From assembly GCA_041748695.1 (NCBI GenBank), contig JBGTCT010000040.1:1-63543 (forward strand): a DNA stretch of 63,543 nucleotides. Reading direction: 5' to 3'. The notes under the pieces are model-generated. The model had not been told where the DNA came from. It saw only the letters and a program-made list of their open reading frames with translations, and searched no databases. The DNA is from Aquaticitalea sp. (lineage in GTDB: Bacteria; Bacteroidota; Bacteroidia; Flavobacteriales; Flavobacteriaceae). The position numbers were made by a program, and so were the translations under genes. Below are positions 2,513-32,478 of this stretch, in pieces. Each line of letters opens with the position of its first letter. Position 1 is the stretch's first letter.

Positions 2513-2653
2513 AAGCTATTTTTTTGATAATAAACTGACATATTTTCAATGAGTATCGGTCAAATTGACATTTTGATACTTCTTATACTCTATTGAAAAC
2601 AACTAGATTAACTGTTAAAATATGTTAAATCATTACTTTGTATTGCAAGGTAC

Positions 2654-2680
2654 TGTAACAAATAATTTAATGTATCGTCT
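2654..2680 (+). promoter_or_regulatory. ECF-sigma-type promoter upstream of the small-peptide array
   Basis: TGTAAC (2654-2659), 16-nt spacer, CGTCT (2676-2680); matches the AAC/CGT ECF pattern, 42 nt before the first ATG. Confidence 0.6.
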
Positions 2681-2722: not shown

Positions 2723-2812
2723 ATGAGAACTTTAAACAACAACAATCTGACTCAAACTATGTTACAAACTAAAAGCCATACATGGAACAGTAAAAGACGT
2801 TTCAAAAATTAA
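2723..2812 (+). CDS. 29-aa peptide A, MRTLNNNNLTQTMLQTKSHTWNSKRRFKN (function unknown)
   Basis: A-rich initiation region; 20/29 identical to the next ORF, with 8 synonymous codon differences. Confidence 0.8.
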   Translation: MRTLNNNNLTQTMLQTKSHTWNSKRRFKN

Positions 2813-2849
2813 CAAATAAAAAATTATCAATCAAAAAAATATAGAAATC

Positions 2850-2939
2850 ATGAGAACTTTAAACAATAACAAATTGACAGGAACATTTCACAATACAAAA
2901 AGTGAATCCTGGAACAGCAAAAGACGTTATTTAAACTAA
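2850..2939 (+). CDS. 29-aa peptide B, MRTLNNNKLTGTFHNTKSESWNSKRRYLN (paralogue of A)
   Basis: Same length as A, ungapped alignment, conserved MRTLNNN and WNSKRR, similar 5' context (tagaaatYATG). Confidence 0.8.
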   Translation: MRTLNNNKLTGTFHNTKSESWNSKRRYLN

Positions 2940-2978: not shown

Positions 2979-3062
2979 ATGAAAACTTTATCAAAAATCA
3001 TCGATTCAACCAATAGTATGAATGATGATACAGACAACCATCGATTATTTATCTGTCTGTAA
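2979..3062 (+). CDS. 27-aa peptide C, MKTLSKIIDSTNSMNDDTDNHRLFICL (function unknown)
   Basis: M(R/K)TL start shared with A and B, A-rich leader, near-identical spacing (129 nt), ends just before the terminator. Confidence 0.6.
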   Translation: MKTLSKIIDSTNSMNDDTDNHRLFICL

Positions 3063-3091: not shown

Positions 3092-3125
3092 AACTGGCAA
3101 GCTCATCACTTGTCAGTTTTTTTTT
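3092..3125 (+). terminator. Intrinsic terminator closing the peptide array
   Basis: AACTGGCAAG-ctcatca-CTTGTCAGTT stem (one G-U) followed by a T run. Confidence 0.75.
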
Positions 3126-3172: not shown

Positions 3173-3733
3173 ATGAAAAATTCAAGACACAGTGCTCCGC
3201 AAGTAAATGCTGGCTCCATGGCCGACATCGCTTTTTTATTGCTGATTTTCTTTTTGGTAAGCACAACCATTTCTGCCGATAAAGGAATTAATAGAAGACT
3301 CCCAGAAAATTGTCCTCAAGGAACAGATTGCTCTGCGGAAATTAAAGAACGGAATATTTTGAGAATTGCCATCAACGCAAATGACGAATTGATGGTTGAG
3401 GATGATATTATTTCAATAAAGGATTTGAAGTCTCTGACCAAAGCTTTTTTGGATAATAATGGGGATACAACCTGTGATTATTGCAATGGTAAGAGTGACC
3501 CAAAATCATCTGACCATCCAGTAAAGGCTGTTATTTCATTGCATAATGACCAACAAACATCTTACGACATTTATATAGCTATTCAGGATATTCTAACCCA
3601 GGCATATTATGAACTTCGTGAGGACTATACAAAAAATAGTTTGGGTAAAACGCCTCGTGAATTGACTGAAGAAGACTTAAAGTTGTTAAAAAAGGCATAT
3701 CCTTTCATTATTTCTGAAGCGGAAATAAAATAA
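3173..3733 (+). CDS. exbD: ExbD/TolR family biopolymer transport protein
   Basis: NAGSMADIAFLLLIFFLV transmembrane motif with the essential Asp; Bacteroidota-type C-terminus YPFIISEAE. Confidence 0.9.
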   Translation: MKNSRHSAPQVNAGSMADIAFLLLIFFLVSTTISADKGINRRLPENCPQGTDCSAEIKERNILRIAINANDELMVEDDIISIKDLKSLTKAFLDNNGDTTCDYCNGKSDPKSSDHPVKAVISLHNDQQTSYDIYIAIQDILTQAYYELREDYTKNSLGKTPRELTEEDLKLLKKAYPFIISEAEIK

Positions 3734-3801: not shown

Positions 3802-5961
3802 TTAATTTTTTTGCTCTAAATCTAATAAAAAGGCATACATCAATGCTATCCGTTTATATCTTTCAAATCGGCCAGAGGCACCGCCATGACCAGTTTCCAT
3901 GTTGCAATCCATGATCAATACATTGTCATCAGTTTTTAATTCACGTAGTTTGGCCACCCATTTGGCAGGTTCCCAATATTGTACTTGACTGTCCCAATAA
4001 CCTGTAGTTACCAACATGTTCGGGTATGCTTTTGCCTCTACATTGTCGTATGGAGAATACGATTTCATATAGTCATAAGATTCTTTTTGTTTTGGATTTC
4101 CCCACTCATCAAATTCAAAAGTTGTTAAAGGAATTGTTTCATCCAACATCGTGGACACTACATCCACAAAAGGTACAGCTGCAATGACACCATGAAATAA
4201 ATCTGGTCTTATGTTCACCACAGCACCAATTAGCAATCCACCAGCACTTCCGCCCATAGCATACATATGGTTTGAACTTGTGTATCCTTGAGTTACCAAA
4301 AACTCACCACAATTAATAAAATCTGTAAAGGTGTTTTTCTTTTTTAACAATTTTCCGTTTTCATACCAATCACGGCCCATTTCCTGTCCTCCTCGTATGT
4401 GCGCGATGGCATAAATAAATCCTCTGTCCAACAAACTCAATATATCCGACTTAAAATTGGCTTCTTGAATGCTTCCGTAAGAACCATAACCATATAGTAG
4501 CAAAGGATTTTCCCCATTTTTGGCAACACCATTTTTGTAAACAAGTGAAATTGGAATTTTGGTACCATCTGTAGCGGTGGCAAATAAACGCTCGGATGTG
4601 TAGTTGTCTGACGAAAAATTGCCACCGACCACTTCATCTTGCTTTAGTAATTTCTGCTCTTTGGTCTCCATATTAAACTCGTAAGTACTCATAGGAGTGG
4701 TCAGTGATGTATATGAATAGCGGAGTATATTGGTATCAAAATCCAAGTTGCCTGAAGTGTAGGCCAAATAACTAGGGTCGTTAAATTTGAGATAATAATC
4801 GGTTGATTTATCCCAAGTCAGAACTCTAATTTCGCTTAAGCCATTTTTGCGCTCTGTAATTACTAAATTCTTATTAAAAAGCTCATAACCTTGAAAAAAA
4901 ACATCATTACGATGTGCAATTACATCTATCCAATTACTTTTTGAAGTTGCGTTTATTGGAGTTTTTACGAGTTTAAAATTTTTAGCATTGAGGTTGGTTC
5001 TAATGTAAAAATCTGGGCCAAAATGATCTACGCTATATTCCAAATTTGCTTCCCGGGGTTGAATGATTTTTGGTATTGCGTTTGGTGTGCTGGCATCCAA
5101 AAAACGATATTCGGAAGAAAGTGTTTGGCTACTTCCTATCATAATGTAGGAATTCGATTTTGTTTTGTATACAAATGTGTTGAAGGTTTCATCCGTTTCT
5201 TCAAATACCAAAACATCTTTCGATTGCTCTGTCCCAATTTTGTGTTTAAAGATTTTATTTTGACGTAAGGTCTGTTCATCTTTTGTTCCATAAAAAATCG
5301 TTTTGTTGTCATTGGCCCAAACCGCTCCACCACTAGTATTTTCTAATTGATCTGGAAGAATCTCGCCAGTTTTTAAATTTTTGAAATACAAGGTGTATTG
5401 TCTTCTCGAAATGGTATCAATGCCATAAACCAACATAGTATTATCAGGACTTACTGCCTGCCCTCCTATTCCATAGTAGGAATATCCTTTTGCCATTTCC
5501 GGACCATTTAACATGATCTCTTCCTGGTTGCGATTAATAGCCTTACGACAATAATAAGGATAATCATTTCCTTCTTCATAACGCGTATAATATTCATATC
5601 CATTATCTTTCACAGGTACCGAAGCATCGTCTTTTTTAATGCGTCCCACAATTTCATTGTACAAGGTATCTTGAAGTTTTTTGGTATGGTTCATGACTTT
5701 GTCCAAATAGTCATTTTCGGCTTTAAGGTAATTAACTACGTCTTGGGTTTGAGAATCAAGCGTTTTAGCGTTTTTCTGGGCATCACTCAACCGCATCCAA
5801 AAATAATCATCTGTTCGTATGTCGCCATGATATTCTAGCTCTTTGGCTATTTTTTTGGCCTTTGGGGCGTCAAGAACCAATTGTTCTTTTTTGTCTTCGT
5901 TGGTTTTGCAACCTGTCAATAAAAATGCAATGGAAATGGCAAAATAAAGTGTTTGTTTCAT
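3802..5961 (-). CDS. ptrB: Oligopeptidase B (S9A), lipoprotein
   Basis: LTGC lipobox; DDYFWMR, YGYGSYG, HIRGG, GGSAGG nucleophile, DSQV, GHGG; TTFEFDEWGNP. Confidence 0.9.
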   Translation of the reverse strand: MKQTLYFAISIAFLLTGCKTNEDKKEQLVLDAPKAKKIAKELEYHGDIRTDDYFWMRLSDAQKNAKTLDSQTQDVVNYLKAENDYLDKVMNHTKKLQDTLYNEIVGRIKKDDASVPVKDNGYEYYTRYEEGNDYPYYCRKAINRNQEEIMLNGPEMAKGYSYYGIGGQAVSPDNTMLVYGIDTISRRQYTLYFKNLKTGEILPDQLENTSGGAVWANDNKTIFYGTKDEQTLRQNKIFKHKIGTEQSKDVLVFEETDETFNTFVYKTKSNSYIMIGSSQTLSSEYRFLDASTPNAIPKIIQPREANLEYSVDHFGPDFYIRTNLNAKNFKLVKTPINATSKSNWIDVIAHRNDVFFQGYELFNKNLVITERKNGLSEIRVLTWDKSTDYYLKFNDPSYLAYTSGNLDFDTNILRYSYTSLTTPMSTYEFNMETKEQKLLKQDEVVGGNFSSDNYTSERLFATATDGTKIPISLVYKNGVAKNGENPLLLYGYGSYGSIQEANFKSDILSLLDRGFIYAIAHIRGGQEMGRDWYENGKLLKKKNTFTDFINCGEFLVTQGYTSSNHMYAMGGSAGGLLIGAVVNIRPDLFHGVIAAVPFVDVVSTMLDETIPLTTFEFDEWGNPKQKESYDYMKSYSPYDNVEAKAYPNMLVTTGYWDSQVQYWEPAKWVAKLRELKTDDNVLIMDCNMETGHGGASGRFERYKRIALMYAFLLDLEQKN

Positions 5962-30494: not shown

Positions 30495-31976
30495 TTACAT
30501 CCAATTTTTTTGAGAAATCTCTAATTTATACAGCAAATAATCCATGAGATATTTTGCATGGTCTTCTTTTATATGTGGAATTTGTAAACTGCTGGAAGCC
30601 GTATCAATTATTAACGATGCTATCTGATTTCTTTTTTGAAAAATCGTTTGGGTGATACTCACAGACTGTATTTTATGAACTTCCAGAATCTGTAGCGTCG
30701 ATTCTATAAAACCACTTTCGATGGTAACATATTTTTCTTCAACACTGTAGCAATATTTTCGATAGGTATATTTCACAAAAAGAAATGCATAAGGAACGAC
30801 CAACAGATTTAATAACCAAAAACTTGAATCATTCAACAAATAGATAATAGCGTTTAAAATCAATAATATGATGACACTGCGAATGATCAATAACCTTTTA
30901 AAGTAGAATTCGGGCTTTTGTTTGTGTTCAGGCTTTTTAAAATCTGAATACATATAATCTATTAAATAATTTACTTGATGGGTATTTAAACCAACCACCG
31001 ACAATTTGTCCTTTTGCTCTTTGTTGGTCATTGCTTGCTTAATGTGCAAAGTGTTTAAATGAAACAGTTGCTTAAGGCGGTTGGTCGTTATGGTGATGCT
31101 CTGTATTCTGGATGGCAATAAATTCAAGTTGACTTTATTGAACAATCCTTTGGATATTTCGAGATTTTTGTTCTGCTCTTTTACGGTTAGATTATAATTT
31201 ACAAGAATCGTTTTAAAAATCGAAAACACCATAACACCGAGAAGCATAACTATAATTGCAACCAAATTGATTAAAATAACAGTAGAAAGCGAGTCACTAT
31301 CTGTTGGAAACCACTGATTGAATTTTTCGCTTAATTTAAATTCCTGCAAAAATTCTTTATTCTCATAAAACCAACCAATAAAAAAAGTAAAGATGATAAT
31401 CATACTTTTAATATGATTGTTGGTGATGCCTTCCAAAAATAATTTAGGGATGGAAGCTTGGTAGTACACAATGGTGTCATCTTCCAAAATTTCAGCTGTT
31501 CTATTGGCCATTAACTCCTTTTTCAACTCCAATGCGTAATCTAATGGTAGAGCACTTATTTCTACTTCAGCATTGTCGTTTCCAGCAGTTTCTATCGTTA
31601 ATGAAGACACATTAATCACTTGTTGTAACAGGTTTTGCTTGATGTAAACATTCTGAATTTTTGTTTTGGGTATGAGGATGTTTTCTTTGTTGACAATTCC
31701 CTTTTCGAGATGAAAGCCTTCGCTTGAACTGTAGAATTTAAAATTCAAGTATTTCAATATAGATACTAATAAAATAAGAGCAAGAATACCAAAAAAAATC
31801 AATAAAACATAAGGTAAGGCAAGTCCATAAACACTTCCTTTATTAATGAATCTGATGATGAATGGAATAAAAAAGATAAAGCCATTCTTCAAAAACTTCA
31901 CCATCTGAAGTCCAAAAATTACTATAATGCCTTTGGAAGATTGACGCGATGGCTGACTAAAATCAAAGTTGCTCAT
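30495..31976 (-). CDS. YdbT-like membrane protein with repeated bacterial PH domains
   Basis: Three TM-pair plus bPH_2 units (KIQNV..Q..LQ..IETAG; RIQSI; KIQSVSITQ). Confidence 0.85.
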   Translation of the reverse strand: MSNFDFSQPSRQSSKGIIVIFGLQMVKFLKNGFIFFIPFIIRFINKGSVYGLALPYVLLIFFGILALILLVSILKYLNFKFYSSSEGFHLEKGIVNKENILIPKTKIQNVYIKQNLLQQVINVSSLTIETAGNDNAEVEISALPLDYALELKKELMANRTAEILEDDTIVYYQASIPKLFLEGITNNHIKSMIIIFTFFIGWFYENKEFLQEFKLSEKFNQWFPTDSDSLSTVILINLVAIIVMLLGVMVFSIFKTILVNYNLTVKEQNKNLEISKGLFNKVNLNLLPSRIQSITITTNRLKQLFHLNTLHIKQAMTNKEQKDKLSVVGLNTHQVNYLIDYMYSDFKKPEHKQKPEFYFKRLLIIRSVIILLILNAIIYLLNDSSFWLLNLLVVPYAFLFVKYTYRKYCYSVEEKYVTIESGFIESTLQILEVHKIQSVSITQTIFQKRNQIASLIIDTASSSLQIPHIKEDHAKYLMDYLLYKLEISQKNWM

Positions 31977-32478
31977 TTATTTTTGAAGATAAAAAAGCGT
32001 TCAATTTTTCTGCGACGTCGGATGGCAAACCTTTAATTACCAAATCACTGCCAGAGGCGCCAGCTGTGTAAATATGAAGTGTTGCCAAATCGAATTTTCT
32101 GGCTAAAAAACTTTTAGAAATTTCTATATGTTGGATCCTGACAAAAGGAACTGTGGTGAGTTTATAGAATATCAATCCGCTTGAATAGATCACATCCAGC
32201 TCCCGGATGGCATATCGGCGTTTTGAAAAGCCCAAAATGGCTATGGTTAAATAAGAAGCAAAAAAAATTATAAGTACACTCAAAAAAATCCAGAAGAAGA
32301 TTAAGGTTGTATCTGTATTGAACACGAAAAAAGTCAAAATCAACACGATAAATGGAACTATAAAAACCATCAATGCGTTTAAATATATTATTTTTAAGTA
32401 GGCCTTGGAAATACCAGTTAACTCAACTGACTCAATTGTGGGTAAGTGATCTGTGACTATCTGTTGGTTGGTTGGCAT
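31963..32478 (-). CDS. YdbS-like membrane protein with a bacterial PH domain
   Basis: Two TMs, then VPFVRIQHIEI...LATLHIYTAG...I.GL; overlaps the ydbT-like gene. Confidence 0.88.
   Translation of the reverse strand: MPTNQQIVTDHLPTIESVELTGISKAYLKIIYLNALMVFIVPFIVLILTFFVFNTDTTLIFFWIFLSVLIIFFASYLTIAILGFSKRRYAIRELDVIYSSGLIFYKLTTVPFVRIQHIEISKSFLARKFDLATLHIYTAGASGSDLVIKGLPSDVAEKLNAFLSSKINEQL

Follow-up and report, generated by a model that had tools for sequence, protein, structure and literature searches.

A tandem-copy family of short basic peptide genes in Flavobacteriaceae and its predicted link to envelope-stress regulation

Three short ORFs of the window (the whole 63,543-nucleotide stretch of Aquaticitalea DNA that was analysed) form a cassette belonging to a conserved Flavobacteriaceae family, in which one to six tandem genes for basic peptides are followed by a diverged last ORF. 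The ORFs are real genes under selection, the cassette promoter carries elements shared with padR-pspC and ECF120 operons, and no maturase common to the carriers surveyed was found. The peptides are proposed to be induced by envelope stress and to act unmodified in the cytoplasm by docking on an acidic partner present in abundance, ribosomal or other RNA being the likeliest, a reading that we hold to be evenly balanced between right and wrong.

Table 1. Coordinates of the cassette and its control region in the window
Feature	Position	Strand	Description
TGTTAA-N4-TGTTAA tandem direct repeat	2613-2628	+	Also before padR-pspC in six family loci examined (L409-L413, L023)
Palindrome GTACTWTG-N5-CAWAGTAC, putative PadR box	2633-2653		Right arm abuts the -35 element
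ECF120-type promoter TGTAAC-N16-CGTC	2654-2679	+	43 nt before ORF A
Peptide A ORF	2723-2812	+	29 aa, net charge +6, C-terminal K-x3-W-x3-R-x-F motif; homologues found
Peptide B ORF	2850-2939	+	29 aa, net charge +5, tandem paralogue of A
ORF C, third ORF	2979-3062	+	27 aa, net charge -1, acidic short last-position form lacking the W/R/Y motif
Intrinsic-terminator-like hairpin and T run	3092-3125	+	10-pair stem at 3092-3118; ends the cassette ahead of exbD

Coding evidence and family architecture

ORFs A and B (Table 1) are copies of a 127-nt repeat with 72% identity. The first-pass annotation, made from the letters of the window, had described two 29-residue paralogues identical at 20 of 29 positions, and both were confirmed on the plus strand; its eight pairs of synonymous codons were recovered exactly on recount. 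Both ORFs of the proposed unit stand, but the unit was drawn too small, as the third ORF, the terminator and a two-part promoter also belong to it. Likewise, the WNSKRR motif that was called invariant holds for A and B, whereas across the family Ser23 is kept in 54% of peptides and the core is K-x3-W-x3-R-x-[YF]. Over its first 13 residues, ORF C is similar to the 44-aa ORF that takes the last position in other cassettes (P = 0.0005), and the terminator-like hairpin was recovered in the MFE and centroid folds alike. The cassette is flanked by a divergent Hsp20 gene and by genes for ExbD, an S9 peptidase and a 3D-domain protein. The exbD gene (3173-3733) is a stand-alone paralogue with several cysteines and no adjoining exbB in the window, and it lies 3' of the cassette in 53 of 80 loci. 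Elsewhere in the window, positions 30495-32478 hold a pair of bPH_2-domain genes, which we take to be YdbS/YdbT-like, presumably an envelope-stress pair in Bacillus.

The suggestion of protein-level selection was borne out by comparison of homologues. In a set of 200 distinct homologous genes, which was selected partly on the peptide motif and whose gene pairs are non-independent, the pooled dN/dS was 0.29 and that of codons 21 to 27 was 0.095. The other five frames gave values of 0.50 to 1.74 and contained stops in 130 to 200 of the 200 genes. Similar values (0.28 and 0.115) were obtained for 21 genes from the DNA-level matches L001 to L012, to which the motif filter was applied as well. The last ORFs also appeared to be selected, with dN/dS of 0.37 for the 44-aa type (48 genes) and 0.13 for the short type to which ORF C belongs (22 genes). 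The initiation context was uniform, with A at -3 in 94% of genes and at -11 to -13 in 91 to 98%, which we take to be the start signature of Bacteroidetes. As a coding test independent of the peptides, metagenomes and viral contigs were searched with the promoter alone. Among at least 109 distinct loci with enough downstream DNA, the first ORF ended in the family motif in 81; 11 more had a motif ORF further down (assigned by reading), and 9 led to larger proteins. ORFs A and B are thus more than chance reading frames. A phage origin was rejected, the sole viral-contig match to the promoter pattern having no peptide behind it.

A function at the level of RNA or in cis, whether as a repeat small RNA or as ribosome-stalling leader peptides controlling exbD, is most improbable. 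The 445-nt transcript folds better than shuffled sequences (z = -2.67, terminator included), and exbD often follows, as noted above. Against this, the frame under amino-acid selection is a single one, the spacing between motif and stop codon is variable, exbD lies beyond a terminator, and behind many cassettes there is no gene in the same orientation. Rfam searches at the locus returned nothing close to a gathering score.

The family was found to be widespread within Flavobacteriaceae. By DNA search, 10 of 11 genomes belonging to the genus proved to have the locus, as did members of several other genera. A peptide profile matched 189 of 401 Flavobacteriaceae genomes at E ≤ 0.1 and 142 at E ≤ 1e-6 (hand count), so that homologues keeping the reading frame and motif, for which a motif search had been proposed, occur in about 140 of the 401. 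Scanning GTDB gave 425 places, of which 80 were kept, mostly in named Flavobacteriaceae (Algibacter, Lacinutrix, Winogradskyella, Flavivirga). In a sample of the phylum, matches occurred in 7 of 22 genomes of the family versus 3 of 278 others, the latter weakly; four weak matches are L322 to L325. Among 1.84 billion protein representatives, 97 matches were obtained.

In 170 loci, 123 distinct cassettes were counted, with one copy in 45, two in 65, three in 11, and five and six copies in one cassette each; up to 11 matches were found in a single genome. Tandem copies had a median identity of 87.5% to each other and 76.2% to first copies elsewhere (70 cassettes), which suggests that copies arose by repeated duplication or conversion. 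A diverged last ORF was called in 92 cassettes, either as a basic type of 43 to 44 aa, usually with W...R-Y, or as an acidic type of 22 to 27 aa; the last ORF was basic in 68 of the 92. A hairpin with a U run followed 58 of 122 cassettes by a crude terminator test. In some genomes, several cassettes stand at unrelated sites with no accompanying enzymes.

Several variants were observed. Deletion variants of 19 to 22 aa (L013:1615-1671, L138, L167, L193, L197, L219) keep the start and the C-terminal motif and mark the minimal unit. Some cassettes contain one of two further conserved ORF types of 37 to 48 aa (L186:967-1080, L194, L211, L240, L252 and L390:1328-1441 for one; L179:751-867, L220, L254 and L259 for the other), in which a tryptophan or basic motif lies in mid-sequence rather than at the end. 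The database entries P0059 and P0043 show in-frame joining of an A-type peptide to the short acidic ORF of the last position, or of one copy to another, as either natural fusions or sequencing read-through. Larger or fused homologues were otherwise rejected, as the long matches inspected proved to be gene calls extended upstream, copies joined by read-through, or repeats unrelated to the family.

No family for A, B or C was found in Pfam, NCBIfam or PHROGs, and PDB matches were at chance level (E 0.31 to 3.5), with nothing similar to ribosomal or other solved proteins. Among near-length homologues, some longer copies are annotated merely as "hypothetical protein." The literature covered, which excludes subscription journals, held no description of the peptide family. 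The family thus appears to be undescribed and its layout as a dosage array unusual, while small proteins in envelope-stress regulons are as a kind already known.

A two-part promoter

The element TGTAAC-N16-CGTC was found before 113 of 123 cassettes, always with a spacer of 16 nt although 15 to 17 nt were allowed. The window's own genome has 10 sites at spacer 16 versus 0 to 4 at other spacers, and it includes, at a contig end, an ECF120-type promoter with the first 71 codons of the sigma gene. Upstream of the sigma/anti-sigma/DUF4252 operon, the element was present in 5/5 genomes. A housekeeping sigma-70 promoter was rejected, with 9 sites against 13.9 expected and a palindrome arm one base short of the Bacteroidetes -7 element. 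SigP of P. gingivalis was likewise rejected, as the motif given in the relevant part of PMC4800418 differs. The window element, with TGTAAC(AAA) at -35 and TCGTC at -10, matches the ECF120 motif (TGTAACAAA / TCGTCAT) that the supplement of PMC7826278 gives for Bacteroidetes, for example P. gingivalis PG0985, together with the gene order sigma, anti-sigma, DUF4252; the assignment was made here from gene context and motif rather than from the ECF120 profile itself. The cassette is likely a member of the predicted ECF120 regulon. It differs from the targets given in the ECF120 passage of that paper, which names no small peptides.

In two genomes, the products of further genes behind the ECF element include Pmp3 and DUF4870 proteins, peptidases, a rhodanese, a beta-lactamase-fold hydrolase and an ABC ATPase, which appear to make up an envelope-stress set. 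Other sites with parts of the same arrangement were noted. On a metagenome contig (L207:900-1450), the right half of the box abuts the promoter of an ECF120-like sigma gene, as in the cassette. On the minus strand of contig C93 of genome G000, around position 4860, TGTTAA repeats accompany an ECF120-type promoter that has no clear ORF behind it and possibly drives a small RNA. The operator and ECF120 promoter also precede a strongly acidic repeat protein of ~150 to 200 aa that is likely exported (repeat LGFDT..YLP..FN; L176:234-794, L185, L205:149-745, L237, L244, L271, L276). The two examples scanned (L176 and L205) matched no Pfam or NCBIfam family, and the protein could serve as a decoy for cationic antimicrobials.

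The second part of the promoter is the palindrome. The window copy scores 23.7 of 28.3 bits with the matrix built from cassettes and is the top site of its genome (23.1 versus 16.6 for the next). With the same cassette-only matrix, 28 of the 29 Bacteroidia loci scored (30 were fetched and one was unparsed) had a site of at least 12 bits upstream of padR, with a median of 23.9 of 28.3 bits, whereas the downstream and shuffled controls gave no such site and about 2 to 3 bits. The palindrome also precedes DUF4870-padR-pspC in five near-complete genomes and, with the matrix, was found in 6/6 loci of the family; the operon encodes DUF4870, PadR, PspC/LiaI-LiaF-TM/Toastrack and DUF2807. An RNA hairpin was rejected, since the two variable arm positions do not covary, and the palindrome is accordingly read as a protein site. 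PadR probably binds it, because the box is kept upstream of its own gene throughout the class, as is usual for operators of autoregulated genes. Lying 5' of the -35 element, the operator occupies a position where an activator could also bind. Upstream of padR (L409-L444), the box is class-wide and apparently undescribed in Bacteroidia, and ~10 to 17 nt separate it from the downstream housekeeping -7 element of padR-pspC.

Co-occurrence was examined in 60 carriers picked for strong matches and ~99% completeness, and HAAS-PspC was encoded by all 60; padR itself was observed directly at 6 loci of the family. The composite operator-promoter was present in 56 of 60 strong carriers versus 11 of 60 for a reversed control pattern (hand count). 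The window's own genome is 57% complete, and its assembly contains pspC and the sigma fragment but lacks padR. PadR-PspC occurs in 48 of 60 Bacteroidia genomes, whereas only some members of one family have the peptides, which are therefore accessory to this system. In one carrier (L018/L060), the ECF element stands without a box, as do the extra cassettes of G018.

The TGTTAA direct repeat upstream of the palindrome is conserved at mostly 86 to 99% per column across 113 cassette promoters, and the window copy is the best site of its genome. The same TGTTAA-N4-TGTTAA arrangement recurs at many intergenic sites upstream of many genes, among them padR and the cassettes. A closely related form of the palindrome (GTACTTTG-N5-CAAAGTAC) was observed before an operon of creD, DUF4153 and an HTH_34 regulator (L379, L383, L386, L391, L414), where it may point to a second regulator with overlapping specificity, which could also recognise the cassette box.

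Peptide properties and modification enzymes

Over 188 peptides, the shared core was [ST]-K-x3-W-x3-R-x-[YF], mostly followed by one or two residues. The filter demanded W, R/K and Y/F/H; Lys at -4, which was not demanded, was present in 150 of the 188. Conserved positions fall at every fourth residue (-12, -8, -4, 0 and +4), and the motif was helical in two AlphaFold models, with a block pLDDT of 74 to 82 and a low pTM of 0.26 to 0.28. The C-terminal motif is thus predicted to form a basic helix. The length before Trp is mostly 20, 28 or 35 residues, and the promoter-only search revealed a 37-aa subtype ending in S-K-R-x-x-W-x-x-x-R-x-Y. Across 372 sequences, the median net charge was +6, D+E amounted to 3%, and GRAVY was -1.44. 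Mimicry of a host protein was rejected, as a single motif match among 3528 ORFs of the genome is at chance level.

RiPPs crosslinked by radical SAM enzymes (darobactin, dynobactin, triceptides, ryptides) are characterized by a SPASM maturase, a conserved leader with an RRE, a core starting with W-N, and a shift of -2 Da per link. The first-pass annotation had headlined A and B as possible orphan RiPP precursors of the darobactin or dynobactin kind, matured in trans. On that reading, an enzyme from another locus would cross-link the W...R.Y core or modify it in some other way. The likeness lies in the short tandem genes, the conserved aromatic C-terminus with its R-R-Y ending, the variable middle and the W-N start of the 28- to 29-aa subtype. 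Asn followed Trp in 117 of 188 peptides, and the 37-aa subtype had Ala or Ser at that position. The leader-plus-core layout did not hold, as anything between 11 and 36 residues precedes the Trp and no motif in this supposed leader is common to the subtypes. With Cys in only 14 of 372 peptides and so few acidic residues, peptide composition excludes lanthipeptide and graspetide chemistry.

The search for a maturase gave little in favour of this reading. Radical SAM enzymes and P450s, which the window had been said to lack, were absent from the 50 window ORFs scanned. Within 5 kb of the 80 loci, 686 proteins formed 91 clusters, and the 89 representatives scanned (two apparent antisense ORFs were left out) contained no radical SAM, P450, YcaO, Lan or ATP-grasp enzyme. 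A 2OG-Fe(II) oxygenase was encoded within 5 kb in 46 of the 80 loci and could be cited for modification, but it is part of the chromosomal backbone. The proposed co-occurrence with radical SAM/SPASM enzymes was not seen: SPASM (PF13186) was detected in 2 of the 60 carriers, one match being a grasp-with-spasm maturase, whereas 8 of 14 control genomes were positive. P450s were found in 27 of the 60 and never in neighbour clusters, YcaO in none, and PqqD/RRE (PF05402, a model that can miss fused RREs) in none. Radical SAM proteins were surveyed in three carriers (35 matches listed, 30 fetched); 13 proteins, each standing for an apparent group, were classified together with the two SPASM matches. 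Ten of these reached the cut-off of MiaB, MtaB, RimO, HemW, LipA, PA0069, HemN, RlmN, a UDG-linked type or ArsS, one was QueE-like, one B12-dependent and methyltransferase-like below the cut-off, two had no family, and one was the grasp-with-spasm maturase. The radical SAM proteins common to the three carriers were mostly housekeeping types. The B12-binding protein showed a sub-cut-off likeness to RiPP methyltransferases (97.7 versus 281.85 bits). In contrast to the known precursors, the family thus has no linked or genome-wide rSAM-SPASM maturase, RRE, constant leader or exporter cluster, and its cassettes move without enzymes. An unknown enzyme class is still conceivable, so orphan RiPPs are kept as a very unlikely reading.

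Somewhat less improbable, yet still quite unlikely, is that the peptides act at the envelope, coating anionic lipids or LPS, or are exported by a co-regulated ABC transporter as leaderless defence or signal peptides with the acidic last ORF as antidote. The high positive charge with W/R/Y residues would fit, ABC transporter genes share the ECF element, and the same promoter drives the exported acidic repeat protein in some genomes. However, the hydrophobic moment (0.256 versus 0.236 for shuffles) shows no amphipathicity beyond shuffled peptides, and with their strongly negative GRAVY the peptides lack the amphipathic hydrophobic helix of membrane-lytic leaderless bacteriocins and PSM-like peptides. 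No exporter is consistently linked, ABC/HlyD/TolC genes being found in 6 to 8 of 80 loci, the strong conservation and fixed synteny are unlike those of bacteriocins, and the last ORF is predominantly basic. Oligopeptidase B was rejected as a linked partner, being present in only 8 of 80 loci.

Proposed mechanism and relation to known systems

In the proposed mechanism, envelope stress would cause PadR to leave its box by way of the HAAS-PspC sensor, and the ECF120 sigma factor would then fire the abutting promoter, giving an AND-type gate. This regulatory part is probable, by analogy with Listeria LstR/sigma-C and the HAAS-PadR model. The peptides would then act unmodified in the cytoplasm, their predicted basic C-terminal helix docking on an abundant acidic target. 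Unmodified cytoplasmic action is suggested because signal peptides and hydrophobicity are absent, a residue-specific helical motif is kept and copies are amplified; on charge, hydrophilicity, the absence of a signal peptide and copy-number amplification, we lean modestly toward a stoichiometric intracellular binder. Were the target the ribosome or RNA, translation would be damped or protected during membrane damage. That particular target is a tentative guess from charge and W/R/Y content, more apt to prove wrong than right, and the acidic ORF C fits RNA binding poorly. Speculatively, and with similar doubt, the array may be the missing effector arm of the HAAS-PadR circuit in Flavobacteriaceae, made up of a new class of ribosome- or RNA-binding helical peptides that are gated by two coinciding envelope signals. 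The number of gene copies, 1 to 11 per genome, would then set the strength of the output, and the diverged last gene would trim it.

The gating has a counterpart in Listeria monocytogenes. As described in the passages of PMC6624303 on sigC-lstR-lmo0421 and lltR-lmo0600-lmo0601, PadR repressors there autoregulate, and one of them gates a promoter that depends on an ECF-like sigma factor, an arrangement proposed to combine two envelope signals; under LltR control are a DUF1700 (HAAS) protein and a DUF4097 (Toastrack) protein. The Listeria outputs given there are membrane proteins in the regulator's own operon, whereas here the output is a distant array of soluble basic peptides of 19 to 44 aa, with PadR binding predicted from sequence. 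A HAAS domain fused to PspC has been proposed to relay membrane signals to PadR (PMC11237479). Carriers encode this PspC-Toastrack operon and the cassette has its upstream box, but the passages of that paper concerned describe no operator and no microprotein targets, and the cassette is an unlinked member of the regulon.

The same system offers another target, on which the main rival reading is built. The basic helix could bind an acidic groove of the HAAS domain of PspC (or ECF120 or its anti-sigma factor) and displace PadR, so that the response is shut off or tuned with copy number setting the threshold. In line with such feedback, HAAS has a strong negative charge (net -7 to -16 per 100 aa) and is present in all 60 near-complete carriers, PadR is basic, PMC11237479 predicts a protein-binding groove at the GxP motif of HAAS, and the peptides belong to that regulon by their promoter box. 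On the other hand, in most Bacteroidia the HAAS-PadR pair functions although the peptides are absent, PadR repressors already autoregulate, and charge complementarity is unspecific; we consider feedback unlikely.

Docking on an abundant acidic target remains the preferred reading. Among known small ribosome-associated proteins, E. coli SRA/S22 and RMF resemble the peptides in being tiny, basic and stress-controlled, and stoichiometric action is the mode proposed here. They are single-copy, no sequence similarity to the family was found in Pfam, NCBIfam or PDB, and ribosome binding by the peptides is a guess. The first-pass annotation's other suggestion, a new family of cationic stress microproteins, is supported, the family being tied to two envelope-stress regulators by its promoter elements.

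About a third of the sampled Flavobacteriaceae genomes carry the family, yet no library searched names it. With the RiPP reading set aside, a natural-product search is spared. The HAAS-PadR system, so far a computational proposal, gains a concrete candidate operator and a conserved predicted target downstream, and ECF120 gains a candidate target class. If the peptides do bind the ribosome, they would connect membrane damage with the control of translation by a new route.
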